Notes: generated by a model from the letters alone, not told the origin. Counted from the stretch's first letter, positions 6,632 through 31,610 are shown. The stretch is 64,000 nt of DNA from an uncultured Micropruina sp. (GCA_964453585.1 CAYVOW010000003.1:1616-65615); one strand, 5' to 3'. Program-made: numbers and translations.

Positions 6632-6638
6632 GACAGCC

Positions 6639-9233: not shown

Positions 9234-9993
9234 CGCCCGCCGCTACGAGGCGCCTCCGCCCGGCCGTCCCGTGGTGGTGGTCGATAACCTGCATGTGAAG
9301 TACCGCGTCTGGGCCAGTGGGCGGGCCGCCGGCGGAGTCGGCGCCGGGCTGGTCAACCGGACGCCGCGGGGGATCCGCGAGGTCCACGCCCTGCGCGGTG
9401 TGTCGTTTGTCGCGCATGAGAATGAGTCAATCGGCGTGATTGGACATAACGGGTGCGGAAAGTCCACATTGATGCGAGCCATAGTTGGGCTGACCCCACC
9501 CGCGAGCGGCGCTGTCTGGGCGACGACAAGACCGAACATGTTGGGTGTCGGCGCGGCTCTCCTGCCCGAGTTATCGGGGGAACGCAATATTGTCCTCGGT
9601 GGATTGGCCCTTGGCTTCTCCAAGAAGGAGATCGCCGAACTTCGAGACCAGATCGTCGACTTCGCCGAGCTCCAGGACTTCATCGAACTCCCGATGCGGA
9701 CCTATTCTTCCGGGATGCAGGCGCGGCTCAAGTTCGCGATCGCCGCCTCCAAACAGCACGACATCTTGATCATCGATGAAGCGCTGAGCGTGGGCGATCG
9801 GCGGTTCCGACAACGTAGCGAGGCGCGGATCCGTGAAATGCGCGATGAAGCAGGGACGATCTTCCTGGTGTCTCACTCGATGCAATCGATTCGCGACACC
9901 TGCTCGCGTGTCATCTGGATGACGAAAGGCGAAGTGGTCATGGACGGCGACACCGACAAGGTCGTGGCCGCTTACGAGGAGGCCCAGCGATGA
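9220..9993 (+). CDS. tagH: Polysaccharide/teichoic-acid export ABC ATPase (TagH-like)
   Basis: Walker A GHNGCGKST, signature YSSGMQARL, Walker B ILIIDEALSVGD, H-loop VSHS. The ATG at 9220 overlaps the end of the permease gene, so the track start at 9130 is an upstream extension. Confidence 0.9.
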   Translation: MAGSNARRYEAPPPGRPVVVVDNLHVKYRVWASGRAAGGVGAGLVNRTPRGIREVHALRGVSFVAHENESIGVIGHNGCGKSTLMRAIVGLTPPASGAVWATTRPNMLGVGAALLPELSGERNIVLGGLALGFSKKEIAELRDQIVDFAELQDFIELPMRTYSSGMQARLKFAIAASKQHDILIIDEALSVGDRRFRQRSEARIREMRDEAGTIFLVSHSMQSIRDTCSRVIWMTKGEVVMDGDTDKVVAAYEEAQR

Positions 9994-13373: not shown

Positions 13374-14759
13374 TTACACGCACGTCTTGCTGGTCTTGTT
13401 TAGCTCTGTCCACCCAGCCATGTACTCGCCGTACACGCGCCGGATGGACTCGGCGAACGCTGGCGTGGCGCGACGGCTGTCGATGGTGATGACATGCTCT
13501 TCGTTGTATCGCAACCCAGAGGTCGACATGTTGGCGGTCCCGGTGAGCACACGGCCGGAGTTGTTCGTCATCGGCCCGATGAGGATCATCTTGGTGTGCA
13601 TGGCCACAGCGGTGCACTTGGCCGGGATAGAGGCCGCCTTGAGTTTGGAAACGACCGTGGAAGAAATGGTCGTCGATCCACCCTGTTGGGTGAGCAGCAT
13701 CTTGATGTCGCAGCCTCGGGACCGCAGGCGGACCAGCGCGTCCACCATCTGGGTGGCCTTGGAGTCGGTCAGCTTGAACATGGCGATGCGGATCTTCTTG
13801 TCGACCGTGCAGTCAACACCGTCGAACTGTCGAATGTAGTGGTCGACGGCGGCGGAGGGCTGAGGGCTGAACGACACGGCAGTGCCGCGGTCGGCATCGG
13901 TCCAGTGCCGGTAGAAGGGATCAACCCAGATAGCGCGGTCCTTGTAGAGCTGAAGGCTGCTGGCAAACCCGCTGTTCGTTGCACAGCCAGTGGTGGCGCA
14001 GATGGCCATCGCGTCGTAGCGCTGACTGAACAGGTCGAACAACTTGTGGTCGTTGTAGATCAGCGAACCTTCTTGAAGGTAGTTGCGGATCTGGCTCCGA
14101 GCGAAGTTGCCGGACGATGAGTAGACAATCGGATCGGCCCCGTCCGCCCAGGTGGTGTCGCTGATGGTAAGGAACTTCTCGTGGTTGATCGCATACGGGA
14201 AGACTGAGGCTGCGTTGGTGTTGAAACAGCCGTTCGCACACCAGTAGAGCTTGGCGATCGAGGACAGCCTCTTCTTGATCAGATCCTTCGCTGAACTCGG
14301 GCTGATCGTGCCGCCGTCCAGGATAAGACCGATCTCGACGTTGCGCTTGTTGTGAACGTACTCCAGGGCGTCGTAGATCACCTCCGGATCGGACTCGGGT
14401 CGGCTGCCGAGACTGGTCTCGGTCATCGTGCCGAGAGCCCGGATGAAGTACATGCCGATCTTGATCTTGGCATTGCTTTGAGCGCCACAGATCACTTGGG
14501 CGATCTTGGCGGCAAACGGCCAAGGGGCCTGGTTGGTCGGGTCGACAATTCCCCGATGGTTCATGTCGTCGATGTTGAACCACGCTTCAAAGGGGTCGGG
14601 CTTCGAGATTGTGGGGCAACCGCCTTCGCCAGCAAGCTTGACCTGACCGCTGGTGTCAGTATCGAACGTGATGGCGCGGGCGACGCCAGCCACGCTTCCG
14701 GCCAAGACCAGGGCCATGAGCCCGCTGAGGGCTGTGAGCATTCGTCGGGGGTTCCGCAT
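13374..14759 (-). CDS. Exported phospholipase D superfamily phosphodiesterase (two HKD motifs)
   Basis: Start at MRNPRRMLTALSGLMALVLAGSVAGVARA (signal peptide; ATG 14759). HKD motif 1 is AINHEKFLTISD and motif 2 is AMHTKMILIG...GTANMS. It lies 11 nt upstream of the FN3 gene on the same strand. Confidence 0.85.
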   Translation of the reverse strand: MRNPRRMLTALSGLMALVLAGSVAGVARAITFDTDTSGQVKLAGEGGCPTISKPDPFEAWFNIDDMNHRGIVDPTNQAPWPFAAKIAQVICGAQSNAKIKIGMYFIRALGTMTETSLGSRPESDPEVIYDALEYVHNKRNVEIGLILDGGTISPSSAKDLIKKRLSSIAKLYWCANGCFNTNAASVFPYAINHEKFLTISDTTWADGADPIVYSSSGNFARSQIRNYLQEGSLIYNDHKLFDLFSQRYDAMAICATTGCATNSGFASSLQLYKDRAIWVDPFYRHWTDADRGTAVSFSPQPSAAVDHYIRQFDGVDCTVDKKIRIAMFKLTDSKATQMVDALVRLRSRGCDIKMLLTQQGGSTTISSTVVSKLKAASIPAKCTAVAMHTKMILIGPMTNNSGRVLTGTANMSTSGLRYNEEHVITIDSRRATPAFAESIRRVYGEYMAGWTELNKTSKTCV

Positions 14760-14862
14760 CAGGGTTCTCTCGAAAGGTCGCCGCACTCGTCGGCGACAGG
14801 CGCTGCGCGCCCAGAAGGCTGTTGACGCTCCATATACTAGGGAGATTCGACGCCGAAGGCAC

Positions 14863-15591
14863 ATGGAGCGCCAGAAGAGTGTCGGTCCTGACCACCCCGA
14901 GGAGGCTCCCGTGGCCGCTTTCCGCTACGCGCTGGCATTGCTCATAGTCCTGCTCTCGACAAGCGTGGCCGCGCCCTCGGCGTTGTCGGATTCGTTGATT
15001 CTCGCCAGCGACCCGCAGCCGAAGGCCGAGCTAGCTGCCCGTCCTGGCTGGGTCACTCTCGTCTTCCGACGTGACGTTGATGTGAGCGTGGCCAAGATCC
15101 TCGTCCTGACGAGCGGAGGCGACAATGTCACCGTCGGTCCGCTGATCGTTGAGGGCACCAACGTGACAACCCAGCTGAGCTCCCAGCTCAAGAAGGACAC
15201 GTACACCGTCCTCTATCGGATCGATCGCCCCGACGGGCAGCCGCAGGGAGGCGCCTTTCAGTTCGCCTACGGGCGCGGCAACTGGACGTCGGTTCCAGCC
15301 AGTTCATGGAGTGGGCAAAGCGCCGAACCAAGCGTGTTGAGCAATCCGAACCCCAAAGCGACGTCAGCGGCGCCCTCGCCAACCGAAGTCGCGACGGAGT
15401 CTCCGACCCCTTCCTTGTCTAAGTCCCCGACCACCAGCGAAATCCCGCCAGCGTCACCCCTGCCCTCTGCCGGACCGGGGACGACCAGCCCAACTTTGAA
15501 TGACTCGCCGATACCGTGGCTCCTCGGGGGCGTCGTGTTAGCGGTGATCATCGCCAGCGTCTGGTTGGTCGCCCGGCGCAAGCGGGCGTAG
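14863..15591 (+). CDS. CopC-fold domain protein, histidine-free, with a S/P/T-rich linker and C-terminal TM anchor
   Basis: The pattern LASDPQPKAELAARPGWVTLVFRRDVDV...DTYTVLYRIDRPDGQPQGGAFQFAYG follows the CopC beta-sandwich. The usual DGH is replaced by DGQ. C-terminal PWLLGGVVLAVIIASVWLVARRKRA. ATG at 14863. Confidence 0.65.
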   Translation: MERQKSVGPDHPEEAPVAAFRYALALLIVLLSTSVAAPSALSDSLILASDPQPKAELAARPGWVTLVFRRDVDVSVAKILVLTSGGDNVTVGPLIVEGTNVTTQLSSQLKKDTYTVLYRIDRPDGQPQGGAFQFAYGRGNWTSVPASSWSGQSAEPSVLSNPNPKATSAAPSPTEVATESPTPSLSKSPTTSEIPPASPLPSAGPGTTSPTLNDSPIPWLLGGVVLAVIIASVWLVARRKRA

Positions 15592-17238
15592 GTCTTCGCT
15601 CACATCACGATAGAGGCGTGACCAATTCTGGACGAGGGTTGCCGAGCTGAAGGCGGCGGCGGCCTTCGGTGCCGCCGCGATCAGCCTTTGGTGGAGATCC
15701 GGGCTCTGAAGCACTTCAATCACTCGTTGGGCCAGTGCTAGGACGTCACCGTCAGGGACCAGGTAGCCATTCTCGCCTTGCGCAATGATGTCTGAGGGAC
15801 CGTACTTGAGGTCGTACGACACGACCGGGCACCCGTTGCTTAGCGACTCCAGAACCGCCAGGCCGAAGCCCTCGTAGGCGCTCGTGCACAGCGACAGCCC
15901 GGCACCCTGATAGATGTCGCCCGGACGATTGGTGTAGCCGGCCAATACCACCGTGCCAGTCAATCCGAGGCTGTCGATCAGCCTGTTGAGCTTCAGTTCA
16001 TCGGTCCCGCGGCCGTAGATCTCCAACCGTGCCCCTGGGACTTCGCGGGCCACACGCGCGAACGCGCGGATCGCGTCGGGCAGGCGCTTCTGCTGGTCAA
16101 GGCGCGCCATCATGACGACCCGTAGCGGCTCCCTGACGATGCAGGCATCCCAGGTGACCTCCTGCGCCGAATGGGGAATGACGTGGAAGTGGGGATTCTT
16201 GCCGAAGTGGGCCTCGGCCTCTGCGCGTTGGGCATCGGTCAAGAACACAACAGCCGCCACCCGACCGTCGCCTTCGAGCAGAGGCCGATAGATTGGCCGG
16301 ATGGAATCCACCCTGTCGTACGGGGGGCGCGTGTGCGCATTGTGCAGCACAAAGATGAGTTTCACGTTGGGGCGGTGGTAGCTCAGTATCCAAGGGTCGA
16401 CTCGGCGCGCCTCGCAGCAAATGAATGCGGGTTCATCTCCGATAAGGTGATCGAGGCAAGCATGCAGCACCTCGTCGTAAGAGGAGAGATACCGTTCTGG
16501 TCTCCCATCCTCATCAAAGGTGATCACCCGTTCGGGGCTTCGCACTCTGGTAACGGGATCGATCCGCCACCAGACGTTGAGCCTGACCGATCCGTTTCGT
16601 CGCCAGAAAATTTCCTGGCGCGCAACCCCGTGGAAGAGGTCCATGAATACCTGGCGTCGCATCGTGCCGTCGGGCCAGAACTCATCGCTGCGAGTCCGGT
16701 TCCGAGCCCCGTCGAAGTGATCTTCGACGATGAGCCTCCCGGCGTAGTCGAAGCGACGAGACATGACATGAATTCCGTCAACGAAGTACTCATAGAGACC
16801 CGTCGCCGGGTTGAGTCGTTCGTACATGCCCGGTTCCCCGACGGGGTGGTCAACGGTGATGCCCGTGAACTCGGTGGAGTCCGGGAAGTACTCGTGCAGG
16901 CTGGCGAGGCGAACTCCGGGCGCGAGAACACCCCTGCTGGAGAACTCGTGGGCGATGTCCTCGATCTGCGAGGAGTCGTACATGGTGACGATCGTTGATT
17001 CCTTGCCGGCGAGCTCCCAGAACAGACGGGCCTTTGTCAGAATGGACGCCGTCCGCCCAGCAAATACGCGAGGCACGACGTCGACCGCGAAGATCACTTT
17101 GCCCGGCGGGAAGGGGGTGGGCCCGTCCTTGGCTTCTTCGAGTGAACCGCGGCCCGGAACGGGCACACCCTTGGTCAAGACTCTGAGCCGGTGGCTGGCC
17201 ACCCGGCGTTGTCGAGTCGATTGAACAGGTGCGACCAT
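15538..17238 (-). CDS. Glycosyltransferase family 4 with a long N-terminal domain (TagE/TarM-like polymer glycosyltransferase), paralogue 1
   Basis: C-terminal GT-B/GT4 pattern: VVMMARLDQQKRLPDAIRAF, LEIYGRG, LCTSAYEGFGLAVLESLSNGCPVVSYD. It aligns over its full length with the adjacent gene. Confidence 0.85.
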   Translation of the reverse strand: MVAPVQSTRQRRVASHRLRVLTKGVPVPGRGSLEEAKDGPTPFPPGKVIFAVDVVPRVFAGRTASILTKARLFWELAGKESTIVTMYDSSQIEDIAHEFSSRGVLAPGVRLASLHEYFPDSTEFTGITVDHPVGEPGMYERLNPATGLYEYFVDGIHVMSRRFDYAGRLIVEDHFDGARNRTRSDEFWPDGTMRRQVFMDLFHGVARQEIFWRRNGSVRLNVWWRIDPVTRVRSPERVITFDEDGRPERYLSSYDEVLHACLDHLIGDEPAFICCEARRVDPWILSYHRPNVKLIFVLHNAHTRPPYDRVDSIRPIYRPLLEGDGRVAAVVFLTDAQRAEAEAHFGKNPHFHVIPHSAQEVTWDACIVREPLRVVMMARLDQQKRLPDAIRAFARVAREVPGARLEIYGRGTDELKLNRLIDSLGLTGTVVLAGYTNRPGDIYQGAGLSLCTSAYEGFGLAVLESLSNGCPVVSYDLKYGPSDIIAQGENGYLVPDGDVLALAQRVIEVLQSPDLHQRLIAAAPKAAAAFSSATLVQNWSRLYRDVSEDLRPLAPGDQPDAGDDHR

Positions 17239-18872
17239 CGCGCGACGAACGTCTCGGGGGTGAATCCCTTCAACGCGTCAGGGGCGTTCCGAGAGAGCCG
17301 GGCCTGAAGCCCTGGCGCTGTGAGCACCGAGATAACTCGCTGGGCGAGTTCCGTAGTGTTGCCGTCTGGGACGAGAAAGCCGTTCTCTCCGTCGGTGATG
17401 AGATCTGCGGGACCGTATTTCAGGTCGTAAGAGACGACCGGGCAACCATGGCCGAGACTTTCGAGGATAACGAGGCCGAAACCCTCGTACGAGCTTGTGA
17501 GCAGCGACATGGCCGCAGTTTGGTAGACCTCGCTGGGGTTGGTGGTGTAGCCGCGAAGCCTCACCGAGTCGGCCACGCCCAGCTCGGCGATCAGCTTCTT
17601 GAGGGCTGCCTGGTCGGGACCCCGCCCGTAGATGTCAAGGCGTGCGTCGGGGACTCGCTGGAGAACCTTGGCGAATGCCTTGATCGCGTGGGGGATCCGC
17701 TTCTGTTGGTCAAGCCGCGCCAACATGACGACGAGGCGAGGGTCCCTGGTGACGCTAGGGTCGATCGTTGGCTTCGGCACCGCGTGGGGGATGACCTGGA
17801 AATTCGACCGGCGTCCGTAGCGAGCTTCCGCATCCGCTCTCTGAGCGTTGGTCAGGAACACGACGGAACCGACCTTGTCGGCGTTGTCGAGGAGCGGCCG
17901 ATAGGCCGGCCGAACCTTCTTGGGGTCGACAAAGGGTGCCGCAATGTGGGGGTTGTGGAGGACGTAGACCTGCTTGACGTTGGGACGCTCATAACTCAGA
18001 GTCTCGGGATCAGCCCGCCGCGACTCCACGCTGAGGATGACCCGGTCGTCACCGACCACTCGGTCGAGGTACGCATGAACAAGTCCGATGTCAGAGTAGG
18101 CAACGTGATTGGGCTTGCCCTCCATGTCGAAAAGGGTGAGCCGCTCGACCCGTGGAGCCAGCGGTTGACCTTCGAGCACAAGCCACCGGGTGAGGTAGGG
18201 GGTTCCGTCCGCCCGGTAGTAGACCTCTTGACGGGGCAGGTTGTGATGAAGGTCGTAGAAGGTCACCCGCCGCGGCGAACCATTCTGGTAGAACTCGTCG
18301 CGTCGAGTCCGTGCTCGGTTCTCGTTGAAGTGGTCACGGACTATGAGCCGCCCCGCATAGTCGTACCTCTTGTACAGACGGTAGATCCCCCCCTCGAAGA
18401 AGCGGTAGACCTCCTGGTCCCTATCCCGGATGGACGACATACCAGGTTCTTCAACGGGGTAGGTGATCGGGTCACTGGCAGGGCCCGACTGCTGACCGAA
18501 GAACTCATGCAGGTTGATCACCTCGACACCCTCGGACAAGGCGCCCCTGTCTCGAGCGACGCGAGTCACGTCGTCTAACTCACCCGAGTAGTTCATGGTC
18601 AGGATCTGAGAGCGAACGCCGGCGACCTCGTAAAACATTTTCGTCTTGGCGAAAATCGACGCAGTCCTCCCTGCGTACTGTCTCGGAATCGCGCCTACCG
18701 CAAAGACCAGGCGGACATCCTTGGGGAATGGCTGCATCGCCGGCACTGGGTCCACCCTTATCTCCACGGGTTTGGGCAGCGTTCGCCGACGTGCCGCCCG
18801 ATACAGGCGGAGGGCGACGTCGTAAGTGCCCGTCGCACGCAACAGCCGCTTGGCGCTGCCCATGATCTTCAC
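17175..18872 (-). CDS. Glycosyltransferase family 4 with a long N-terminal domain (TagE/TarM-like), paralogue 2
   Basis: VVMLARLDQQKRIPHAIKAF, LDIYGRG, LLTSSYEGFGLVILESLGHGCPVVSYD. GTG at 18872 lies 6 nt after GAGGAG. Its 3' end overlaps the start of paralogue 1 by 64 nt. Confidence 0.85.
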   Translation of the reverse strand: MKIMGSAKRLLRATGTYDVALRLYRAARRRTLPKPVEIRVDPVPAMQPFPKDVRLVFAVGAIPRQYAGRTASIFAKTKMFYEVAGVRSQILTMNYSGELDDVTRVARDRGALSEGVEVINLHEFFGQQSGPASDPITYPVEEPGMSSIRDRDQEVYRFFEGGIYRLYKRYDYAGRLIVRDHFNENRARTRRDEFYQNGSPRRVTFYDLHHNLPRQEVYYRADGTPYLTRWLVLEGQPLAPRVERLTLFDMEGKPNHVAYSDIGLVHAYLDRVVGDDRVILSVESRRADPETLSYERPNVKQVYVLHNPHIAAPFVDPKKVRPAYRPLLDNADKVGSVVFLTNAQRADAEARYGRRSNFQVIPHAVPKPTIDPSVTRDPRLVVMLARLDQQKRIPHAIKAFAKVLQRVPDARLDIYGRGPDQAALKKLIAELGVADSVRLRGYTTNPSEVYQTAAMSLLTSSYEGFGLVILESLGHGCPVVSYDLKYGPADLITDGENGFLVPDGNTTELAQRVISVLTAPGLQARLSRNAPDALKGFTPETFVARWSHLFNRLDNAGWPATGSES

Positions 18873-18998
18873 TTCGATCTCCTCTGACGACTGGAGCCAT
18901 CTAACCAGCTACCGCGTGGGGGCCGGGGAACCCTGCTTGCGGCGGTGGGTCCTGCGCTACCCTTGGGGCCTCGAAACCTGGGATTCGGAGGCCACACC

Positions 18999-20336
18999 GT
19001 GCGAGTGATTACCTACGGCACCTTTGACCTCTTCCATGAGGGTCACCGCCGCCTCCTGGAGAGGGCCCGTGCCTTGGGAGATTACCTGATCGTGGGCGTG
19101 ACGACCGAAAACTACGATGACTCTCGGGGTAAACTAAACGTCAGGCAAACCCTGATGGAACGGATCCAAAATGTCCAGCAGAGCGGGCTCGCCGATGAGG
19201 TGATTATCGAAGAGTATGAAGGTCAGAAAGTTCAGGACATTCAGAAACATCGGATAGACATCTTCGCCATTGGATCCGACTGGCTGGGCAAGTTCGATTA
19301 CTTGGGTGACTACTGCAAGGTTGTTTACCTTGAGCGCACGAAGGGAGTCTCCAGCACGCAACTTCGCGACGAATCGAATGGCGTGATTCGTATCGGCGTG
19401 GTGGGCGCCGGGCGAATTGCGAGCCGATTCGTTGAAGAAGCACGTTACGTGAGCGGGGTGAGTGTGGAGGCTGTGTACAGCCGCAACTTCGAGAAGACGC
19501 GGCGATTTGCCGAGAGACTCGAGCTCGAATGGGCCAACGAGTCATTTGCCGATCTTTTGCAGCACGTCGAGGCAGTTTATGTAGCGACGCCTCATCGAAC
19601 TCATTACGCTTACGCCAAGGAGGCCCTAGAGGCACGCGTCCACGTCCTCTGCGAAAAACCGATGTGCTTATCTCGCGCCGAAGTTGAGACTCTGTTTGCT
19701 CTGGCCGCGGACCAGGGTGTGGTGTTGTTGGAAGCAGTGAAGACAGCGTTTTGCCCTGGTTTTCAACGCATGGTCGCAGTTGCTCGCAGCGGGTCCATTG
19801 GCCGTATTCGTTCGGTGGACGCAACCTTCACGAAATTGGTGACGGGGGGGCGAGAGCTCCACGGGGATGACGGGGGAAGCATCTCTGAGTTGGCCACGTA
19901 TCCGCTACTTGCCGCGGTCAAGCTGATGGGAACATCTTTTGTTGACCAGAAAACGTACTCCCTGATTCCGGATGGTTCGGAAGTCGAGGTCTTCTCACGT
20001 ATCGATTTGCTTTATGAGCAGGGAGTTGCCTCGGCCCGCACGGGTTTGGGAGTGAAGGCGGAGGGGGACCTCATTGTCGCCGGCAGCCGTGGGTACCTGT
20101 ATGTACCGGCCCCGTGGTGGAAGACCGAGTACTTCGAGACCCGGTTTGAGGACCAGAGCAAGAACAAGAAGTTCTACTACAAGTTCGATGGAGACGGACT
20201 TCGCTACGAACTCGCCGAGTTCGCCTGGATGATCCGCAATGGCGCGCCAGAGTCATTCAAGTTGCGCGCGATTGAGTCGGCGACACTCGCGGGAATCATT
20301 GAACAAGCCCGCAATCAGGCAACTCTGTTCGGCTGA
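18999..20336 (+). CDS. Fusion protein: TagD-type glycerol-3-phosphate cytidylyltransferase + Gfo/Idh/MocA NAD(P) oxidoreductase
   Basis: The N-terminus VRVITYGTFDLFHEGHRRLLERARALGDYLIVGV...IGSDWLGKFDYL...VVYLERTKGVSSTQLR matches B. subtilis TagD almost motif for motif. The remainder carries IRIGVVGAGRIA and VLCEKPM (Gfo/Idh/MocA Rossmann fold plus EKP motif). GTG at 18999 lies 9 nt after GGAGG. Confidence 0.9.
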   Translation: MRVITYGTFDLFHEGHRRLLERARALGDYLIVGVTTENYDDSRGKLNVRQTLMERIQNVQQSGLADEVIIEEYEGQKVQDIQKHRIDIFAIGSDWLGKFDYLGDYCKVVYLERTKGVSSTQLRDESNGVIRIGVVGAGRIASRFVEEARYVSGVSVEAVYSRNFEKTRRFAERLELEWANESFADLLQHVEAVYVATPHRTHYAYAKEALEARVHVLCEKPMCLSRAEVETLFALAADQGVVLLEAVKTAFCPGFQRMVAVARSGSIGRIRSVDATFTKLVTGGRELHGDDGGSISELATYPLLAAVKLMGTSFVDQKTYSLIPDGSEVEVFSRIDLLYEQGVASARTGLGVKAEGDLIVAGSRGYLYVPAPWWKTEYFETRFEDQSKNKKFYYKFDGDGLRYELAEFAWMIRNGAPESFKLRAIESATLAGIIEQARNQATLFG

Positions 20337-20339
20337 ACG

Positions 20340-22919: not shown

Positions 22920-23022
22920 TCGTCAGTCACCTAAGTGGCTGCCGGCTCAAGCAGGTGTCGAGATCCCTGGAGTGGACGGGTCGCCTTGGCGCTAAGATGA
23001 CTGGCCTTACAGGAGGTGGGGC

Positions 23023-24078: not shown

Positions 24079-24137
24079 TCGCCCACCCCTGATGACGGCC
24101 GGGCATCTACCCGCACCCCGACCATGAGGATCTGACG

Positions 24138-24713
24138 TTGAAGCAGCGGTTGATCGCCCTTGTCACCATTGGCCTCAGTGCCTGCGCCGCGACGCCGCCT
24201 GGCGTACAGACCACCTCGTCGGCGTCCCCTACGGCTGTGGCTCAGCCATCGGCGCCCGGCGGGGAATCGTCCTCCCCGAGTCCTAGCGTGAGCGTCGCGC
24301 CCACCCAGGAGTCGACCGCCGGGGCCATCGCGCGCGGCAGGGTCGACGACGTGGAGTTCTTGGTCCTCGCCGTTTCGATGGTCGATCACGTCGAGGGGCG
24401 TGCCAACCGCAAGGAAACAGGCCATTGGCTAGCCATCAAAATGCGGGTGGTCAACCAAGGGAAGAGCACCGTGGTGCTCAACACGCAGGGGTTTCAGGTG
24501 ACCTCGGGTGCCGGCAAGAACTACCTGACCGATGACCCCGCGATGTTCACCGACAACGACTCGGATGAACTCATCGGCAGCGGCATCACGCCGGGTGCCA
24601 AGGCTGAGGGAACACTGCTCTTCGCCGTCCCAAGGAACGCGAAGTCCTTCGTGCTGACTTCCTGGAAACCCGACTCCAGCGTCCCACCTGCGAAGCTGTC
24701 ATTGAGGGTTTAG
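24138..24713 (+). CDS. DUF4352-like lipoprotein
   Basis: Lipobox LVTIGLSAC and a S/P/T-rich linker. The beta-sandwich pattern WLAIKMRVVNQGKSTVVLNTQGFQV...GITPGAKAEGTLLFAVP is typical of DUF4352. TTG start 7 nt after GAGGA. Confidence 0.7.
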   Translation: MKQRLIALVTIGLSACAATPPGVQTTSSASPTAVAQPSAPGGESSSPSPSVSVAPTQESTAGAIARGRVDDVEFLVLAVSMVDHVEGRANRKETGHWLAIKMRVVNQGKSTVVLNTQGFQVTSGAGKNYLTDDPAMFTDNDSDELIGSGITPGAKAEGTLLFAVPRNAKSFVLTSWKPDSSVPPAKLSLRV

Positions 24714-24831
24714 CCGTCCGCGGCGACGTCGTGGGCTGCACGACCGTCTCGACAGTGTTAGCTTTACCGTGGGGGAAACGCTCCCGCCCGATCTACACAC
24801 CCCGGGCCTCGGTGCGACCACAGGAGCACGC

Positions 24832-26799
24832 ATGAAACTAAAGACTATCAAGCTCGTCATCACGGCCGGGCTGAGCCTTGGACTTGTCGGCCTGCCGATG
24901 GCGACGCCGAAGGCGGCTGCGGCGCCGCCCACCGCCAGCATCAGTGTCTCGACCCTACCGGTCTACGACAATGGGACGGTCAACGTCGCGGTGGATTTCC
25001 CAACGTCAACCTACGACGGCGTGCTCTACGGCAACTACCCCCGGCTCGTGCTGGAGAAGTCGACCGATAGCGGCGCCACGTGGCAGAAGGTAGGCACCTG
25101 TCAGAAGTCAACGTCGGCGGGCGTCTACACGTTCAGCTATAACGTCGGCACCGAGACTCAGAAGATCCGGGTGTCCAACGACCCGTCGGCGACCTGCCTT
25201 AGCGGCCAGACGGGAGCGTTCTACAACGATCCGACCAAAGTGCTATCGACCGCTGAGGTGGCCATCGATCCCCAGACCCCGCCGCCCCCGGGCACCAATA
25301 CGCTGACCATTCAGGCGGACGGTAAGAAGGCTACAGCCACTTTCGCGACGCCCCACGGTGGCCAGAGTGCTTCGCTGCAGATCGAGACGATCCTCACCAA
25401 GAACACGCGTGAAGTCACAGCCCCCGCGTGGAAGACGATTGCGACTGCCTCCCAAAACTCCAGCGGGGTGGCCACCTTCTCCATTTCGAACCCGTACGAA
25501 GTGTCGCACGTGTATCGGGTGATCTCTGGAGCCGATGTCTCTGACGTCGTCACCTTTGCGGCCCCTGAGGGCGCGAAGACCACGGGAATCCCGCAGGTGT
25601 ACATGAACACCAACGAGCAGGCAACCGTAGACACTCGGACCCGCTACTTCGAGGGTACCTTCACCATGACTGCTGGCAATGGGTGTACGGCGGTTGCCAC
25701 CATCCCCAAGTCCGTCGTTAAGGGTCGGGGTAATTACTCGTGGAGCTTTGCCAAGAAGTCCTTCACTGTGAAGCTCGATAAGAGCACCGACCTTTGCGGC
25801 CTCGGCAAGTCAAAGAAGTGGGCGCTGGTGGCCAACCACTATGACAAGTCGCTGTTGCGCAACACCGTCGCGGGTTGGGTTGGTTCGAAATTCAGTAACC
25901 TTGCTTGGACACCCAAGAGCACTCCGGTGGACCTCTGGATGAATGGGTCCTATAGGGGCTCCTACATTCTGATTGAGCGGATTGCCATCGATACATTGAG
26001 AGTCAACATCCCCAAGGTGGACGATTACCGCACGGTCACCGACCCCGCGACCCTCGGCTACATCATGGAGTGGGACTTCCGCAAGGGTGCCGACCACAAC
26101 ATCACGGCGCGCAGCAACGGCTGGCTTGGTATCAAGGAGCCAGAGGACGATAAGGACGAGGCCGGAGTCAACACGGGCAAGGGCATTACCGCCGGCCAGA
26201 TCACCTTCATCGACGGCAAGCTCGATGCGGCGGACTCAGCGCTGTTCGGATCCGGGTTCACCGGCTCGACCGGCTGGAGGTCGCACATCGACGAGGCCTC
26301 GGCGGTGGATTATTACCTGGCCATGGAGTTCATGAAGCCGATTGATGGCAACATGTGGGCCAGCGTTTTCATGTACTGGGATCCCACCATCAAGAAGTTC
26401 AAGTTTGGGCCGATGTGGGACTTTGACATGTCTTCGGGGTCTGCGGTTCGCGCGGGCGACGCCGTGAACCCAAGGAGTTGGTACCTCCGCAATCCGCTTG
26501 GGATTTCTGCCATGCAGAGTCCGAAGACCTGGTTCAACCGCCTCAACGAAGACTCGGCCTTCCGAAGCGCAGTGCGGACTCGCTGGAACCAGGTTTCGAG
26601 CAGCATGAGCGGCATCGGCACCTTTGTGGACTCCCAAAAGGCAGCGGTCAAGCTGTCTGCGGCCGAGAACTGGAAGGTGTGGAGCATCACGCAGCACCTG
26701 AGCAGTTCGCAGGTGGTCAAGGGCAACTGGGACGCTGATGTGAGCTACCTCAGGTCGTGGTTGACCTCGCGCAAGTCGTACTTCGACAGCCAGTTCTAA
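24832..26799 (+). CDS. Exported CotH-family (atypical kinase fold) protein with N-terminal Ig/FN3-like modules
   Basis: Signal peptide MKLKTIKLVITAGLSLGLVGLPMATPKAAAAP. CotH core: KGRGNYSWSFAKKSFTVKLDKS...KKWALVANHYDKSLLRN...YRGSYILIERI...GPMWDFDMS. The ATG at 24832 is preceded by AGGAG, so the track start at 24769 is an upstream extension. Confidence 0.85.
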   Translation: MKLKTIKLVITAGLSLGLVGLPMATPKAAAAPPTASISVSTLPVYDNGTVNVAVDFPTSTYDGVLYGNYPRLVLEKSTDSGATWQKVGTCQKSTSAGVYTFSYNVGTETQKIRVSNDPSATCLSGQTGAFYNDPTKVLSTAEVAIDPQTPPPPGTNTLTIQADGKKATATFATPHGGQSASLQIETILTKNTREVTAPAWKTIATASQNSSGVATFSISNPYEVSHVYRVISGADVSDVVTFAAPEGAKTTGIPQVYMNTNEQATVDTRTRYFEGTFTMTAGNGCTAVATIPKSVVKGRGNYSWSFAKKSFTVKLDKSTDLCGLGKSKKWALVANHYDKSLLRNTVAGWVGSKFSNLAWTPKSTPVDLWMNGSYRGSYILIERIAIDTLRVNIPKVDDYRTVTDPATLGYIMEWDFRKGADHNITARSNGWLGIKEPEDDKDEAGVNTGKGITAGQITFIDGKLDAADSALFGSGFTGSTGWRSHIDEASAVDYYLAMEFMKPIDGNMWASVFMYWDPTIKKFKFGPMWDFDMSSGSAVRAGDAVNPRSWYLRNPLGISAMQSPKTWFNRLNEDSAFRSAVRTRWNQVSSSMSGIGTFVDSQKAAVKLSAAENWKVWSITQHLSSSQVVKGNWDADVSYLRSWLTSRKSYFDSQF

Positions 26800-26806
26800 T
26801 CGCTGT

Positions 26807-26846
26807 GGTGGTCGTACCGGTGGTGGGAGCTACCGGCACGACCACC
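26807..26846 (+). terminator. GC-rich hairpin directly after the CotH stop codon
   Basis: GGTGGTCGTACCGG-tggtgggagcta-CCGGCACGACCACC, a 13/14 bp stem. Confidence 0.55.
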
Positions 26847-27097
26847 TCGTCACATCAAGACCGCCAGGTGGCTGGGGTGTGGTGAGGGCCATTCTAGGGA
26901 CCGGTCCAAGCGGGTCGTGCCGCAATGGACAACCGCGAGCCCAACCATCCTGCGTGGGAGGGCGTACCTCAATAGCCGCACCAGCAGTCGCGGGAGTGTG
27001 CGGTGGAAGGCGCTCGATTGCCCCGATCTTGAGAGCGTCCTCCTAAGGCCTCCCTGGTAGTCTGGGCCCCGCCACACCCCGATCGAGACGGCACAAC

Positions 27098-28201
27098 GTG
27101 ATTCCTGGTCAGCCCGCGCGCAACATCCACCGGCGAGAACTGCTGTCGGCCGCCGGGTTTTTGGCGCTGTGCGGTTGTGGTGGGCCACAAGCCAGCAACG
27201 TTTCGACTCCGTCCCATGCCGCCAGCTCGCCGCGGGCAACGCCAAGCCTCTCCCCGACCCCCTCCCGGTCCGAAAAGTCCGGCGGCATCCATGTCCGGCT
27301 GATGACCTTTAACATCATGACGGCCACGAAGAAGTCGATTTCGGACATGCCAAGCAGGTATAACACGTCACTCGCTTGGATCTCCCGAGTGCCTGCCATC
27401 ACGGCGCGGATCGCGGCCCAGCAACCGACGATTCTCTGCCTTCAAGAGAACGAAGCGAAGGTCGACAACCTGTGGCAGGCCGACTACGTGCTCAAGGAGA
27501 TGCCACAGTACGAACGCTCTCCCTACGGAAAGCCCAGCGATCCGGTCCAGATCCTCTTTTCTCCGCAGGAGTTCGAGGCAAACGATGGCGGTCTCTTCAA
27601 GCTCAACACCCGAGGTCTGAACGGCGCTCCAAAAGATCGTTTCTGCGCGTGGGCGCGCCTCTCTGACCGGAGCACCGGTCGCGAGTTCCTCGTCATGACA
27701 GCTCACTTGACGTCCTCAGCCTCGCTACAGCGGGCCGAGTTTCGAGCCTACGAGTGGACGCAGTTTATCGAGGGCGTGCGCCGAATCGACCCTCAACGCC
27801 AGCTCCCTTTGGTCTTGTGTGGAGACTTCAACGCCACCGAGGACGAGACGCGCGACATTTACGACGCTCATATCAAGGGCATCGACGAACTGGGACTTCG
27901 AAATGCGCGGAGCTTGGCCCGACTGGACTCCACGGCCGCACACGGGGCCGCAAGCATGAACCTGATGGGCGACGTCGTCGACGGCAAGTGGTACTACGGC
28001 CTGATCCGGATGGGGGCAGCTATCGACTACATCTGCGTCCCGGCGCAGACAGGCGTCGCTGAATGGCAGACGGTGCTCGGGTCGGGGCCAGCTCACGGGG
28101 TCACCCGTCGTTGGATAGCGAGCACGGAACGGGCCTTTTTCACCGAGTATCCCATTGGCTCGGACCACAATCCCGTCTTCTCCCATTTCCTCCTCTGGTG
28201 A
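27098..28201 (+). CDS. Endonuclease/exonuclease/phosphatase (EEP) family lipoprotein
   Basis: RRELLSAAGFLALCGCGG (Tat-like signal plus lipobox). EEP motifs LMTFNIM, ILCLQE, LCGDFN and IGSDHNPVF. GTG start. Confidence 0.85.
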   Translation: MIPGQPARNIHRRELLSAAGFLALCGCGGPQASNVSTPSHAASSPRATPSLSPTPSRSEKSGGIHVRLMTFNIMTATKKSISDMPSRYNTSLAWISRVPAITARIAAQQPTILCLQENEAKVDNLWQADYVLKEMPQYERSPYGKPSDPVQILFSPQEFEANDGGLFKLNTRGLNGAPKDRFCAWARLSDRSTGREFLVMTAHLTSSASLQRAEFRAYEWTQFIEGVRRIDPQRQLPLVLCGDFNATEDETRDIYDAHIKGIDELGLRNARSLARLDSTAAHGAASMNLMGDVVDGKWYYGLIRMGAAIDYICVPAQTGVAEWQTVLGSGPAHGVTRRWIASTERAFFTEYPIGSDHNPVFSHFLLW

Positions 28202-28373
28202 TGCGGGGTCGGCAGAGGTACTCGTGATGCCTGCCGAAGAGAGCGGGGAGGCGTTCGCTCAGCCACTGACTTCAGCCGCTCAGAGGCCGCCACGAGGTGA
28301 GCGATGGGACACCGGCCGTTCTCTTGCTCCCGGCGCGGACTTGGAGGGAGCTAGAACTGCAGGTGCTGGCTCG

Positions 28374-30068
28374 TCAGGGAAGGACGACCGTGGCGCGCAG
28401 CATATTGTGATCCGATGGGATGACCCCGATGAAGCGGCCAGAGGAGTCAATCTCGACCACGGTCTCCCATTCCAGGACGCGCATAGGTGTGGTGAACAAG
28501 TAGTCGAGGTACGTCCCGTTGACATAGGTGAAGCTCTTCGCTTGGCGCACGAAAGCGTTAAAGGACGAGAAGTTGGTACGGACCCGGTTCTCAACCGTCG
28601 CCCCGCGGGTGGCGGTGGTGGAGCGGTAGTAGTTGCCGAGCGGATCGACGTAGCCAGCCTCTAGGATCAAGTCGTAGGGGGTGTTGGCGGGGAGCGTCCA
28701 CTTGTGTGAGTTCAGGTCACCCGCGATCACCGCGGGCAGCCCAGCGGGGTTCTTCAGGCGGATCTCAGACAGTACTTCCGCTGTCTGGATGCGTCGCAAC
28801 TCCGCTGAATCCGACGACGGCTCCAGATGGGTGTCGGCGAAGAAAAAACGCTTGCCTGAAACCCGGTCCTGGAAGATGGCCCACGCGAGGTATCGGGCCT
28901 GGCTGCCCTGGGACGACAGCTTCTTCGACCCCTGTGCTACCAGGGCGAGTCGCGCCGCTCGGTAGACGATCTTCGTCCCTTGAGAAGCGCCCTGGTCGGC
29001 CGGCACGCAATTGGTCGGTGTTGAGCTCGTGACGCAGTTGTTTCTCGCCGAGTTGGTCAGCCGATAACCAGGCCCCAAGCGCTCTACCAAGTCTTCGAAC
29101 TGTGACTTGTTGATCTGGTCGCCGTTCGAGTCGCGCAACCAACCCTGGGACGCCTCCTGAAGCCCGATGACGTCCGGAGCCTGCTGCAAGACAGTCCGCG
29201 CTACTACCGGCGCCCGCACACTCCACGGTTCCTCATCAGGTACACCGCTGAAGCAGTTGGCGCACTTCACGTTGTAGGTCGCAATCCGCAGGCTGGCTCC
29301 CGGCGGGTTGGACGGCGTGGGTTCGGTGGGGATGGATGGCGTCGCCGAGGGAGACGGACTTGGCGCGACCTTTGGCGTCTTGAACGAGACCTTGGCGGAG
29401 TACTCGCTCAAGCTGACTCCCGCCGCTGAGATGACGCGGACGCGCGCCATGTAGGTGGCGCCGGCGGTGAGGGCCTTGATTGACGCGTACGTGACCGCGT
29501 GGAATCTGAAGTACCGTGGGACGGCCGTGCCCTGTGTCAATTCGACTCGGTAGCTGAGGCCAGCCTCCGAACCGTGCCATCGCAGGAAGGCCTCGACCGA
29601 GTTCACGTTCTCCACCTTGAGGCCTGAGGGGCTGAGGTGCGGGTAGTCCCCCGCGCTGCGGGTCGACACCCGCACCGCCGGTGAATACGGCGTCAGGCTC
29701 TTCGTTCCGTCTGCCGAGATCACTCGTACGCGAACGTAGTAAGTTCGCCCGGCCTGAAGTGTGGTCAAGTCCAATGAGTTGCTCCACGACCGTCGATAGA
29801 CGGCGTCCGACATGGCCTGGTCGGTGGCGTACTGCACGCGGTATCGCGGTGCACCCGTCACGGCACTCCAGGTCAGTCGGAGGGCCGTGACGGAACGACT
29901 CGAAGTCGTCACGGACGTTGGGGTGGAGATGGCGGCGTTCGCAAGCCGTCCGTCCAGGAAGAGGGCGGTGCACGCAAGACAAAGCAGGCTCGCGAGCAGA
30001 GCGGCATACCTTCTCACAGTCGACCCCCAGGGCTTGTTGCGACACGCAGAGTCAGGCGAACCTAACAT
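28374..30068 (-). CDS. Exported FN3-FN3-EEP phosphodiesterase, paralogue 1
   Basis: Signal/TM segment YAALLASLLCLACTALFL. Two FN3 modules (LRLTWSAVTGAPRYRVQY...GRTYYVRVRV; FLRWHGSEAGLSYRVE...GATYMARVRV). EEP motifs IATYNVKCANC, VIGLQEAS, IAGDLNS and IPSDHNMLRATVVLP. The start is uncertain (ATG 30068 or GTG 30017). Confidence 0.85.
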   Translation of the reverse strand: MLGSPDSACRNKPWGSTVRRYAALLASLLCLACTALFLDGRLANAAISTPTSVTTSSRSVTALRLTWSAVTGAPRYRVQYATDQAMSDAVYRRSWSNSLDLTTLQAGRTYYVRVRVISADGTKSLTPYSPAVRVSTRSAGDYPHLSPSGLKVENVNSVEAFLRWHGSEAGLSYRVELTQGTAVPRYFRFHAVTYASIKALTAGATYMARVRVISAAGVSLSEYSAKVSFKTPKVAPSPSPSATPSIPTEPTPSNPPGASLRIATYNVKCANCFSGVPDEEPWSVRAPVVARTVLQQAPDVIGLQEASQGWLRDSNGDQINKSQFEDLVERLGPGYRLTNSARNNCVTSSTPTNCVPADQGASQGTKIVYRAARLALVAQGSKKLSSQGSQARYLAWAIFQDRVSGKRFFFADTHLEPSSDSAELRRIQTAEVLSEIRLKNPAGLPAVIAGDLNSHKWTLPANTPYDLILEAGYVDPLGNYYRSTTATRGATVENRVRTNFSSFNAFVRQAKSFTYVNGTYLDYLFTTPMRVLEWETVVEIDSSGRFIGVIPSDHNMLRATVVLP

Positions 30069-30125
30069 TCAACGTCCGGCCAGTCGCGACGGAGCCGCTG
30101 AACCCTAAACCTCCACTGAAGACGT

Positions 30126-31610
30126 CTAAGGAAGGAAGACGCTGGCGCGGATCAAATTGTGATCCGATGGAATGACCCCGATAAAACGGCCTGCCGAGTC
30201 GACGTTCACGACCGTTTCCCATTCAGCCACGCGCATGGGACTAACGAAGATGTAGTCCAGATAGGTGCCGTTCGGGTAGGCAAATCGCGGCGGGACGCGG
30301 CGGTAATCGTTGAAGCTGGAGTAGTTGGTCCGAATGCGCTTCTCGACGATCGCATTACGGGTAGACCAGGTGCTTCGGTACGAATTGCCCAGCGGGTCGA
30401 GGTAGCCACTCGCGAGCATGGCATCATAAGGATCATTGCCGCCGGGCATCCATTTAAACGAATTGAAGTCGCCGACGACGATGACCGGCAGCTTGTTGGG
30501 GTTGTTCGAACGAATGGTTCTCAGGAGCTCCCGCACTTGACGAACTCGAAGCGATTGCTGGGGCTTACCGGGTTCCAAGTGCGTGTTCGCGAAGAAGAAC
30601 TGCTGGCGCGTTGCACGTTGCTCAAACACCGCCCAATCGACGTAGCGACGGATGTTCGCGCCGCTCGCCGTGGGAAGCGCCCGAGCCCCGGACTTGATCA
30701 GTCGGAGCGTGGTTGTGTTGTACGCGACTCTCACGTCCTGATCGGCGCGGGCGCGGCCGTAGTAGGTCAGCCGATAGCGCGACCCGAGGCCATGTGCCAG
30801 GTCTAGGAACTGAGTCGTCGATCGTCCCTTCAGCTGGCTCTGGGAGACCTCCTGCACTCCGAGCACGTCCAACGACTGCCCGAGGATGGTCCTCACCACC
30901 GCATTGCGTCTGCTTCCCCACGAGCCGCTTCCGCAGTTGGCGCACTGAACGTTGTAGCTGCCGACGCGAAGGGCCACTGGCCTTGAGGTCGTTACCGGTC
31001 CGCGGTCGGCCCACTCGCTAAGCGGCCGCCCCGCTCGATCGACGAAGCGGGTACGGAGGAAGTACGAAGTCCCTGGCTTGAGGTCGGTCAGCGATAGGAT
31101 CGGCCCCCTGGCCGTCGCGGTGGCAGGGGGATCGGAGCCCAGCACGGGGGACCATTCGGCTTCAAGCGCAACCCCTCTCGCGGGTGAGCGCCAAGCGAAC
31201 CCCAATGATCGGACGGTCGCCTCCTTGGAGGCAAGGACGGGTACGGGCAGCGCGAACTCGGTGGTCGCCAACTGCGGCGGAGATTGACCGATCTCTTCAT
31301 GCTCCGCGGACGTCGCCGTTACTCGAATGCTGTATTGAGTGTGCGGCCGTAGGCCGCTGACAACGGCGAGGGTTGCCGTGGTCGTGAGGCTACGACTCGA
31401 GTTCGGTTCACCGGTGGGGGCGGTGGTGACGCGGTATTGGGTTGCCCCGGGAGCGAACTGCCAACTGATCGCGAGGAGAGTAGATCGAGAGGCCACGGAC
31501 TTGATACTGATGATCGCGGGGGGGTCGGCCCGAGCGATTGGCGGTGTGACCGTCAGCCACAGCAACGTGGACATCAACAGGAGCGACAGTAGGCGGCGGC
31601 AACCGCACAT
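30126..31610 (-). CDS. Exported FN3-FN3-EEP phosphodiesterase, paralogue 2
   Basis: The ATG at 31610 is preceded by GGAGGA. Signal peptide MCGCRRLLSLLLMSTLLWLTVTPPIARA. FN3 modules (ISWQFAPGATQYRV...HTQYSIRVTA). EEP motifs VGSYNVQCANC, VLGVQEVS, VVGDFNS and IPSDHNLIRASVFLP. It is collinear with paralogue 1. Confidence 0.85.
   Translation of the reverse strand: MCGCRRLLSLLLMSTLLWLTVTPPIARADPPAIISIKSVASRSTLLAISWQFAPGATQYRVTTAPTGEPNSSRSLTTTATLAVVSGLRPHTQYSIRVTATSAEHEEIGQSPPQLATTEFALPVPVLASKEATVRSLGFAWRSPARGVALEAEWSPVLGSDPPATATARGPILSLTDLKPGTSYFLRTRFVDRAGRPLSEWADRGPVTTSRPVALRVGSYNVQCANCGSGSWGSRRNAVVRTILGQSLDVLGVQEVSQSQLKGRSTTQFLDLAHGLGSRYRLTYYGRARADQDVRVAYNTTTLRLIKSGARALPTASGANIRRYVDWAVFEQRATRQQFFFANTHLEPGKPQQSLRVRQVRELLRTIRSNNPNKLPVIVVGDFNSFKWMPGGNDPYDAMLASGYLDPLGNSYRSTWSTRNAIVEKRIRTNYSSFNDYRRVPPRFAYPNGTYLDYIFVSPMRVAEWETVVNVDSAGRFIGVIPSDHNLIRASVFLP

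Follow-up and report, generated by a model that had tools for sequence, protein, structure and literature searches.

Predicted exported enzymes of the EEP and PLD superfamilies belong to a conserved gene module that accompanies wall-glycopolymer genes in many species of the Propionibacteriales. We describe this module in DNA from an uncultured Micropruina sp. (GCA_964453585.1 CAYVOW010000003.1:1616-65615; the whole stretch of 64,000 nucleotides is called the window), in which a wall-glycopolymer island spans 8.4-31.6 kb, in the conserved slot between pgi and moeBA of a genome that is Micropruina-like and belongs to the Propionibacteriaceae. Comparison with related loci supports a putatively exported module of one to five EEP enzymes with FN3 repeats (FN3-EEP), a PLD-superfamily enzyme, a CopC-like protein and an FN3/CarboxypepD_reg surface protein, tied to glycopolymer genes; EEP alone recurs in the tag loci of Micrococcales. 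Tentatively, and with somewhat less than even confidence, we propose that the exported EEP and PLD enzymes tailor or turn over a glycosylated polyol-phosphate wall polymer outside the cell, by analogy with the teichoic-acid hydrolases of Firmicutes. The original prediction, made from this DNA alone, had taken seven exported phospho-ester enzymes of the island for one dedicated machinery of such turnover. That interpretation is partly supported: three of the seven enzymes fit it, as do two partners that had not been listed.

Conservation of the module across relatives

The survey was anchored on 30 aligned FN3-EEP homologues. One genome per GTDB species was scanned, giving 79 loci with 10-kb flanks from Propionibacteriales together with Arthrobacter, Pseudarthrobacter and Paenarthrobacter, and a few genomes supply two of the 79. 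When the island proteins were compared with these loci by tblastn, TagF, the polyol-phosphate polymerase, was found within 10 kb of the EEP anchor in 41/79 loci and abutted it tail-to-tail (<=300 bp) in 24/79. TagF or tagGH is present in 49/79, tagG together with tagH in 19/79, a TagD-type cytidylyltransferase fused to a GFO/IDH/MocA oxidoreductase (TagD-GFO) in 26/79 and a TarM-like GT4 glycosyltransferase in 60/79. The PLD enzyme recurs in 26/79 loci and the CopC-like protein in 28/79, among them 26/26 of the loci with PLD. Co-conservation therefore holds for the two FN3-EEP enzymes and PLD, which recur with wall genes, but not for the CotH kinase-fold protein, the PtpB-like phosphatase and the DUF4352 lipoprotein, each found in 0/79 loci (absent at E 1e-4). 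As CotH homologues also lie in unrelated neighbourhoods, the idea of a dedicated seven-enzyme machinery has to be given up. The comparison separates a conserved module from a lineage-specific insertion, and the genes of the island need not all form one machine.

Gene order is kept as well as gene content. Two of the loci (L004 and L006) read EEP-FN3EEP, TagF-TagD/GFO, GT4-GT4, CopC and PLD-FN3/CPD_reg, and in an Arthrobacter locus (L005) FN3-EEP stands amid a TagF, glycosyltransferase and tagGH locus. EEP genes number one to five in tandem, with a second tandem copy in many related loci. One clade has neither TagF nor TagD (L028, L033), and there EEP still abuts two GT4 genes, with or without CopC-PLD. 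A further locus, anchored on PLD (L174; 53% identity in PLD), shares synteny with the window over the whole stretch between pgi and TagF inclusive, in the order pgi-tagGH…PLD-CopC-GT4-TagD-TagF. The order PLD then FN3/CPD_reg is repeated in L004, L006 and L174. In the window 11 nt separate the PLD stop codon (13374-13376) from the start of the FN3x3/CarboxypepD_reg gene downstream (13362), a spacing consistent with the co-transcription that had been claimed for this pair.

Several of these loci hold features of their own. In a Propionicimonas metagenome-assembled genome (MAG), five tandem FN3-EEP paralogues adjoin TagF (L049 737-8504) and are 41-54% identical to EEP_A, the first of the two FN3-EEP enzymes of the window; this expansion in copy number suggests diversifying substrate specificity. 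FN3-EEP is preceded in L028 (5441-11530) and L033 (5453-11581) by a trio of a MoxR ATPase, a DUF58-like protein and a ~740-aa transglutaminase-like protein, named from N-terminal sequence; in these loci without TagF the trio is a conserved left-hand neighbour of a different kind. In L174 (464-3696), the slot after TagF, where the window has its EEP genes, is taken by two Stealth (hexose-1-phosphate transferase) genes; the slot seems to collect varied phosphoryl-transfer enzymes.

Fold, chemistry and possible substrates of the exported enzymes

EEP_A and EEP_B are paralogues with 43% identity by BLASTP, EEP_B being without the Cys-loop insert, and each N-terminus has a hydrophobic core followed by ANA or ARA. 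Together with the EEP lipoprotein of the insert, they keep the N / QE / GD(L/F)N / DY / SDH catalytic set; the catalytic residues are invariant in the 30-sequence alignment, and the proteins, with Pfam scores above cut-off, belong to the EEP superfamily. EEP_B is unmatched by the pattern (D/T)(A/T)HL and has NTHL instead. As three of the seven predicted enzymes are EEP proteins and two of them are paralogues, the seven are less independent than their number implied. The FN3-EEP enzymes form a small subfamily: a search of 1.84 billion representatives gives 181 clusters at E<=1e-30. In almost all members the EEP domain follows an N-terminal extension that varies and that consists of FN3 repeats in those homologues with recorded Pfam matches.

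The AlphaFold2 (AF2) model of EEP_A has a pLDDT of 85. The best Foldseek matches of the EEP domain are the Bacteroides structures 3mpr, 3g6s and 4c1r (TMt ~0.8, 21-23% identity, probability 1.0), followed by 3l1w, and a PDB sequence search agrees with this placing. According to its PDB title, 4c1r is BT3783, a mannosyl-6-phosphatase, and it acts on a phosphorylated glycan; EEP enzymes can also be glycan-specific phosphodiesterases (PMC10704324). DNase I, ExoIII, ExeM/NucH and sphingomyelinase types are not among the 50 best Foldseek matches and no NCBIfam nuclease model matches EEP_A, on which grounds we rejected the identification of the FN3-EEP enzymes as extracellular EEP nucleases or sphingomyelinases.

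The original prediction described the PLD enzyme as having two HKD motifs. Two HxK copies are present, H193-x-K195...S216-G-N218 and H388-x-K390...G407-T-x-N410, each HxK then followed by GxxN, and they are invariant in 33 homologues; the canonical Asp at +7 is absent from both. Membership in the PLD superfamily is clear from a bilobed AF2 model (pLDDT 82, pTM 0.85, made with database homologues) and from Foldseek matches to two-HKD PLDs with probability 1.0. The closest matches, PLD3/4, PPK1, F13 and phosphatidylserine (PS) synthase, have TM ~0.6 and 14% identity, and a PDB sequence search returns only Nuc, at E 2e-3. A Streptomyces-type secreted phospholipase D was considered and set aside, with TM 0.47-0.50 and 11-12% identity to 1f0i/1v0y. 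The N-terminal signal reads RRMLT...ARA, and the mature protein has 10 cysteines, all conserved across homologues (invariant or in >=90% of sequences). EEP_A has 4 cysteines in its mature form, and two Cys pairs are conserved among its homologues; the conserved cysteines of both enzymes fit exported, disulfide-bonded proteins.

Divergent from PLD is the gene of the CopC-like protein, which has a signal peptide, an S/T/P-rich linker and a C-terminal transmembrane (TM) anchor. A conserved motif, YTVxYR...GGAFQFAYG, marks the family, and NCBIfam scores are far below cut-off. The mature N-terminus is without His, and the DGH position reads DGQ, with His not conserved there among 34 homologues. The absence of copper-ligand histidines rules out a copper chaperone, and the protein probably serves in structure or binding, with its C-terminal TM helix as the tether.

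EEP enzymes hydrolyse phosphoesters with Mg2+, and PLD chemistry proceeds through a covalent phospho-histidine that can lead to hydrolysis or transfer. In the mechanism we propose, TagD-GFO would make a CDP-polyol, TagF would polymerise polyol-phosphate on a lipid carrier, the two GT4 enzymes would glycosylate the chain and TagGH would export it. Once the glycosylated polyol-phosphate polymer is outside, the EEP enzymes, which depend on Mg and would be held at the wall by FN3 repeats, and PLD, which forms a phospho-histidine, would act on its phosphodiester bonds or its phospho-substituents. The outcome would be trimming, release or turnover of the polymer, the job that GlpQ, WhyD and PhoD do in Firmicutes with other folds. 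Glycosylated repeats block GlpQ, so that substituted polymers are expected to need further enzymes (PMC7086022), and WhyD is a dedicated endogenous hydrolase of wall teichoic acid (WTA) (PMC9208761). A more specific form of the proposal, which we hold possible but more doubtful than not, is that FN3-EEP and the trio of PLD, CopC-like and FN3/CPD_reg proteins are previously unrecognised dedicated parts of actinobacterial TagF-type systems, cutting or transferring glycosylated polyol-phosphate chains as "teichoicases" or transphosphorylases.

A number of observations weigh against polymer processing. The case for it is drawn from gene neighbourhood and fold, and the fold match of PLD is a generic one (14% identity), nearest to PLD3/4 nucleases, PPK1 and PS synthase. 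Nocturnin, PDE12, CNOT6L and TDP2 rank next in the EEP Foldseek search, not far behind the best group. Co-occurrence was counted outward from the EEP anchor, in one direction only, and 12/79 EEP loci have no wall gene within 10 kb, some of them on short contigs. L174 has Stealth genes and no EEP, which makes EEP and PLD separable, and EEP and TagF are convergent, hence not co-transcribed. No homologues of phage depolymerases were found: the EEP domain has 2 weak matches in unannotated faecal "Bacteriophage sp." contigs and PLD has 0. Finally, the intergenic regions of the island contain no PHO-box-like core (G[GT]TCA[CT][CT]), which also counts against the scavenging of organophosphate discussed next.

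The PLD model is closest to the PLD3/PLD4 5'-exonucleases and its sequence to Nuc, nucleases are abundant in the EEP superfamily, and the host clade includes phosphate-cycling sludge organisms, to judge by locus titles. These points would fit exported EEP, PLD and PtpB-like enzymes that scavenge external organophosphate (extracellular DNA, phospholipid, phosphoproteins) and sit at a wall locus through polymer anchoring or shared regulation, the polymer not being their substrate; the non-catalytic FN3, LGFP and CarboxypepD_reg modules could serve to anchor them to the wall. We consider this unlikely. In structure the EEP domain comes closest to the BT3783-type group and not to DNase I, ExoIII or ExeM-type enzymes, EEP and PLD carry no recognised wall-binding module (SLH, choline-binding), and tight adjacency to TagF or GT4 persists in both orders; as these genes converge, regulation by itself hardly accounts for it.

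PLD, EEP or both could instead be biosynthetic, carrying out an extracellular, energy-independent transesterification that moves the polymer or polyol-phosphate to an acceptor (peptidoglycan, glycolipid or another glycan) or swaps its lipid anchor, with a logic like that of LCP ligases, LtaS or Cwh43-type EEP remodelling. Phospho-histidine chemistry in the PLD family supports transphosphatidylation, the fold matches include PS synthase and PPK1, and the link of the PLD-CopC-FN3/CPD_reg trio with TagF, TagD-GFO and GT4 is very stable. Moreover, an LCP gene was found neither in the island nor in the annotated related loci, although actinobacterial LCP genes are commonly elsewhere in the genome, so this absence is weak. 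Lipid remodelling of glycosylphosphatidylinositol (GPI) has been linked to the EEP proteins Cwh43 and PGAP2IP (PMC10704324). We give a biosynthetic role little credence, as neither acceptor nor donor can be named and as the copy number of EEP (1-5) and its dispensability in L174 resemble accessory hydrolases more than essential ligases.

The insert at the TagF/EEP junction

The closest relative, Micropruina sp. SSC1 (L023), has the order moeA-moeB-EEP-EEP-TagF with an EEP/TagF gap of 75 bp, where the window has 5.4 kb and four genes. This direct junction, the 0/79 count and the unrelated contexts of CotH identify the block 23023-28201 as a lineage-specific insertion. The PtpB-like phosphatase, DUF4352 lipoprotein, CotH protein and EEP lipoprotein are therefore a later insertion at the TagF/EEP junction, and their link to the polymer is positional only. 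CotH, the phosphatase and DUF4352 are absent from the PLD-anchored L174 as well, and the four-gene arrangement is identical in several metagenome assemblies that are evidently of the same species. No mobile-element signature was seen at the 5.4-kb insert, where the only direct or inverted repeats in the flanks are matches of a length expected by chance.

The PtpB-like phosphatase has C267-X5-R273 in the P-loop HCHSGKDRTG, as in PtpB of Mycobacterium tuberculosis (Mtb), and belongs to the PtpB-like family (Y_phosphatase3); its best PDB match is PtpB (1ywf, E 1e-15), its LGFP repeats match the PS1 LGFP structure 6swz, and its N-terminus, SRRNLV...AEA, is Tat-like. The EEP lipoprotein (signal RRELL...LCGC) is 24% identical to EEP_A and of another EEP subfamily within the same superfamily, its nearest PDB sequences being Nocturnin (3e-9) and 4c1r/3mpr (1e-4). 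It too likely lies outside the conserved module, having only weak 21-29% cross-matches to other EEP genes. The CotH protein starts with the predicted signal KLKTIKLVITAGL... and has a ~300-aa beta-rich N-terminal region and the family invariants KGRGN, D505 and W529-D530-x-D532. Bacillus CotH is a Ser/Thr kinase with catalytic D228 and D251 (PMC7821199). From D505 to D530/D532 the spacing is 25-27 residues, against 23 in B. subtilis (PMC7821199), and the profile alignment to 5jd9 covers the N-lobe only.

The CotH homologues examined are 48-62% identical (56-62% for the nearest on usable contigs; a 65% match on a 2.1-kb contig was left out). They neighbour GH65/HAD, HhH-GPD/Flp, Metallophos or ribosomal genes, and tag genes in none. 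In Aeromicrobium-like MAGs, 2-3 tandem CotH genes stand between map and infA within the ribosomal-protein/secY/adk operon (L001 7720-13814 and L003 7705-11704), an odd site for exported kinase-fold genes. In three other contexts CotH adjoins Metallophos (L002 10001-13313, L092 1228-4413 and L093 761-3946), and in the window (23023-28201) its neighbours are the PtpB-like phosphatase and an EEP protein; this repeated proximity to exported phosphoesterases hints at an extracytoplasmic kinase/phosphatase pairing.

For the insert, then, CotH might form with the PtpB-like phosphatase or the EEP lipoprotein a pair that phosphorylates and dephosphorylates a surface protein or glycan outside the cytoplasm, apart from any turnover of teichoic acid. 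The Metallophos neighbours, the conserved CotH invariants (KGRGN, D505, WDxD530-532), the kinase activity of Bacillus CotH (PMC7821199) and the CotH genes that accompany Gram-positive Pel exopolysaccharide loci (PMC7112168) speak for such a pair. On the other side, the pair would need a source of ATP outside the cell, the phosphatase and CotH occur together in no other locus examined, and the catalytic residues of CotH are left unmapped by an alignment to the solved structure that stops at the N-lobe. We regard the pairing as a reasonable idea in its own right, though a rather doubtful one.

The same variability raises the question of chance, namely that the far end of the island is a hot spot for unrelated exported genes and that the phospho-ester theme is coincidental. 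The cargo of the slot after TagF varies (1-5 EEP, two Stealth genes or phosphatase-DUF4352-CotH-EEP), CotH, the phosphatase and DUF4352 are confined to one lineage, and the GC content of the island is deviant; accretion at a hot spot is true at least for the insert. It covers the insert and not the order of EEP, GT4, PLD and CopC that is kept over dozens of species, and even the variable cargo is repeatedly phosphoryl-transfer (EEP, Stealth, CotH, phosphatase). As an account of the phospho-ester theme, accretion thus strikes us as improbable.

The island, its biosynthetic core and its place among known systems

The island (window 8394-31640) is a 23-kb block bracketed by pgi and moeB, with GC 0.59-0.63 against ~0.70 in the flanks; codon GC3 is 0.71-0.81 for island genes and 0.86-0.94 for flanking genes. 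Relatives share the pgi...moeBA flanks, the flanking genes (Table 1) connect the window with Micropruina-like genomes, and the closest matches of the CotH, EEP and PLD proteins are from Propionicimonas, Micropruina, Microlunatus and Aeromicrobium. Gene families (Table 1) were assigned by Pfam and NCBIfam scans of the island proteins, and export signals were judged by eye and with a hydropathy/motif script on N-termini. The original prediction of seven exported phospho-ester-fold proteins interleaved with TagD/TagF/TagE/TagGH-type genes is borne out in its domains and positions: Pfam finds the domains, a motif scan finds the catalytic motifs intact (in PLD as two HxK, without the Asp), and Sec, Tat or lipoprotein signals are plausible on all seven. 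The interleaved genes are tagG, tagH, two GT4 genes, TagD-GFO and TagF. A promoter/terminator scan of the island gave fewer sites than in shuffles and is uninformative.

Table 1. Genes of the island and its borders, by position in the window.
Gene product	Position	Strand	Basis
306-aa exported protein, just upstream of pgi, outside the island	5589-6509	+	weak bacterial SH3 match below Pfam cut-off; C-terminal domain unassigned
pgi	6603-8315		82% identical in L174
tagG-type ABC-2 permease (polymer export)	8394-9233	+	Pfam ABC2_membrane E 2e-15; 60% identical to pgi-adjoining gene in L174
tagH-type ABC ATPase	9130-9993	+	Pfam ABC_tran; 71% identical in L174; true start probably Met at ~9220
496-aa polytopic membrane protein, unclassified	10039-11529	+	no Pfam or NCBIfam match
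Exported FN3x3 + CarboxypepD_reg x2 surface protein	11551-13362	-	Pfam fn3, CarboxypepD_reg; signal peptide
Exported two-lobed PLD-superfamily enzyme	13374-14759	-	Pfam PLDc_2 E 1e-21
CopC-fold protein	14863-15591	+	Pfam CopC E 4e-11
GT4 glycosyltransferase, TarM/TagE/SdgA-like	15538-17238	-	Pfam Glycos_transf_1; NCBIfam SdgA/SdgB/GtfA below cut-off
GT4 glycosyltransferase, TarM/TagE-like paralogue	17175-18872	-	Pfam Glycos_transf_1 + weak Glyco_trans_A_1
TagD-type cytidylyltransferase / GFO/IDH/MocA oxidoreductase fusion (TagD-GFO)	18945-20336	+	Pfam CTP_transf_like + GFO_IDH_MocA; TIGR01518 108 bits
TagF/TarF-family polyol-phosphate transferase	20340-22919	+	Pfam Glyphos_transf E 8e-98; NCBIfam TarF E 2e-63, below cut-off
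LGFP + PtpB-like CX5R phosphatase, putative Tat signal	23023-24078	+	Pfam LGFP + Y_phosphatase3 E 2e-37
DUF4352 lipoprotein	24138-24713	+	Pfam DUF4352; lipobox LSAC
Exported CotH kinase-fold protein	24832-26799	+	Pfam CotH E 6e-32, above cut-off
EEP lipoprotein, putative Tat/lipoprotein signal	27098-28201	+	Pfam Exo_endo_phos E 2e-6, 28.5 bits (cut-off 24.5; weak)
Exported FN3-FN3-EEP enzyme A (EEP_A)	28374-30068	-	Pfam fn3 + Exo_endo_phos
Exported FN3-FN3-EEP enzyme B (EEP_B)	30126-31610	-	Pfam fn3 + Exo_endo_phos
moeB	31723-32493		65-75% identical in Micropruina-like relatives
Predicted acetyl-CoA-synthetase-like gene (named by similarity)	36631-38520		90-91% identical in Micropruina-like genomes

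With a Glyphos_transf polymerase, a candidate CDP-polyol synthase and an ABC-2 exporter all in one locus, the island has the composition of a TagF-type wall teichoic acid locus. TagD-type enzymes make a CDP-polyol, and polymerisation of polyol-phosphate by TagF takes place in the cytoplasm, on a lipid carrier. TarM/TagE-type GT4 enzymes glycosylate the polymer and TagGH exports it. The TagF of the island has an N-terminal extension of ~500 aa and scores below every NCBIfam equivalog cut-off. None of tagO, tagA, tagB and an LCP ligase is among the island genes scanned, the rest of the genome not having been searched. The 496-aa membrane protein has 0 homologues in ~90 related loci (0/79 of those anchored on EEP) and is possibly a strain-specific, GT-C-like extracytoplasmic transferase; at the equivalent position L174 has a different, unannotated gene of 499 aa (14870-16369).

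TagD-GFO sits in the lowest-GC stretch of the island (0.59) and is 66-80% identical across Propionibacteriales, its neighbours being 40-57%. Metagenome contigs of lower GC, mostly <0.50 and including some from gut samples, carry full-length homologues with 41-53% identity (L095-L121). The metagenome contigs anchored on TagD-GFO have no EEP, PLD or close TagF nearby; these are mostly distant homologues (41-53%) at GC 0.30-0.61, L094 being an exception with GC 0.66 and 69% identity, and they say nothing for Propionibacteriales. We take the fusion for a candidate CDP-polyol synthase with two functions, possibly acquired laterally, and the polyol made through it may differ from glycerol. Apart from this unusual fusion, the biosynthetic core is that of an ordinary TagF-type locus.

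To our knowledge, the turnover or tailoring of teichoic-acid-type polymers is known from no more than a few enzymes, all of Firmicutes (GlpQ, PhoD, WhyD), and almost nothing of the kind is known for Actinobacteria. How substituted polymers are processed was left open by the stop of GlpQ at glycosylated repeats (PMC7086022), and if our proposal is true, the EEP and PLD enzymes would fill this gap by processing GlpQ-resistant substituted teichoic acids. A small EEP subfamily and a divergent PLD beside TagF and TarM-like genes in dozens of species are clonable candidates for wall-polymer phosphodiesterases or transferases, and a genetic test is possible in culturable strains of Arthrobacter, Microlunatus and Micropruina. 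For the processing of wall polymers in Actinobacteria, the module is a solid lead that can be tested, and not yet a demonstrated system. The literature searched holds no paper that ties EEP or PLD enzymes to teichoic-acid processing, or CotH to teichoic acid.

The insert proteins have relatives with other roles. The phosphatase shares the HCxxGKDRTG P-loop with Mtb PtpB (1ywf), a secreted virulence effector without LGFP, whereas the window enzyme has a putative Tat-type signal, an LGFP wall anchor like that of Corynebacterium PS1 (6swz) and a lineage-restricted locus. CotH shares its Pfam domain with the Bacillus spore-coat kinase but is predicted to be exported, has a beta-rich N-terminus and shows marginal sequence similarity to solved CotH. 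CotH genes beside exopolysaccharide loci were noted previously in non-sporulating bacteria (PMC7112168); the partners of the Pel-type CotH module, VTC and DUF4956, are absent at the window locus.

Biosynthesis compares most directly with the WTA pathway of B. subtilis 168, with which the island shares the Glyphos_transf polymerase, a TagD-type cytidylyltransferase, TagE/TarM-related GT4 enzymes and the ABC-2 exporter. In contrast to that pathway, TagD is fused to GFO/IDH/MocA, TagF is ~500 aa longer N-terminally, and tagO, tagA, tagB and LCP genes are not in the island. Among EEP enzymes, the BT3783 group (4c1r, 3mpr, 3g6s) and the EEP GlcNAc-phosphodiesterase family share the fold, are secreted and act on phosphate esters of glycans (PMC10704324). 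These Bacteroides and Clostridia enzymes are single-domain proteins that degrade foreign glycans, whereas the window enzymes, a small subfamily apart, have 2-4 FN3 repeats, a Cys-loop insert and conserved pairs of Cys and are linked to biosynthesis genes of the cell's own polymer.

GlpQ and PhoD of Bacillus subtilis and WhyD of Streptococcus pneumoniae are likewise exported or membrane-anchored and perform phosphodiester chemistry, in their case on the cell's own polyol-phosphate wall polymer, which they hydrolyse to recycle phosphate or to tailor the wall (PMC7086022, PMC9208761). Their activity on polymer is demonstrated, whereas for the window enzymes we infer it. As predicted, the enzyme families differ: Pfam finds no GDPD or PhoD catalytic domain in the island proteins, so we rejected membership in the known teichoic-acid hydrolase families, and the likeness is a functional analogy only. 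GlpQ, PhoD and WhyD are built on the GDPD TIM-barrel and the PhoD metallophosphatase fold, and the window enzymes on EEP and PLD. The genes of GlpQ and PhoD belong to the Pho regulon and lie away from the tag genes, whereas the window enzymes are embedded in the biosynthetic locus itself. What we infer to be new is thus a wall-polymer locus with dedicated exported phosphodiester enzymes from families other than those of the known teichoicases.

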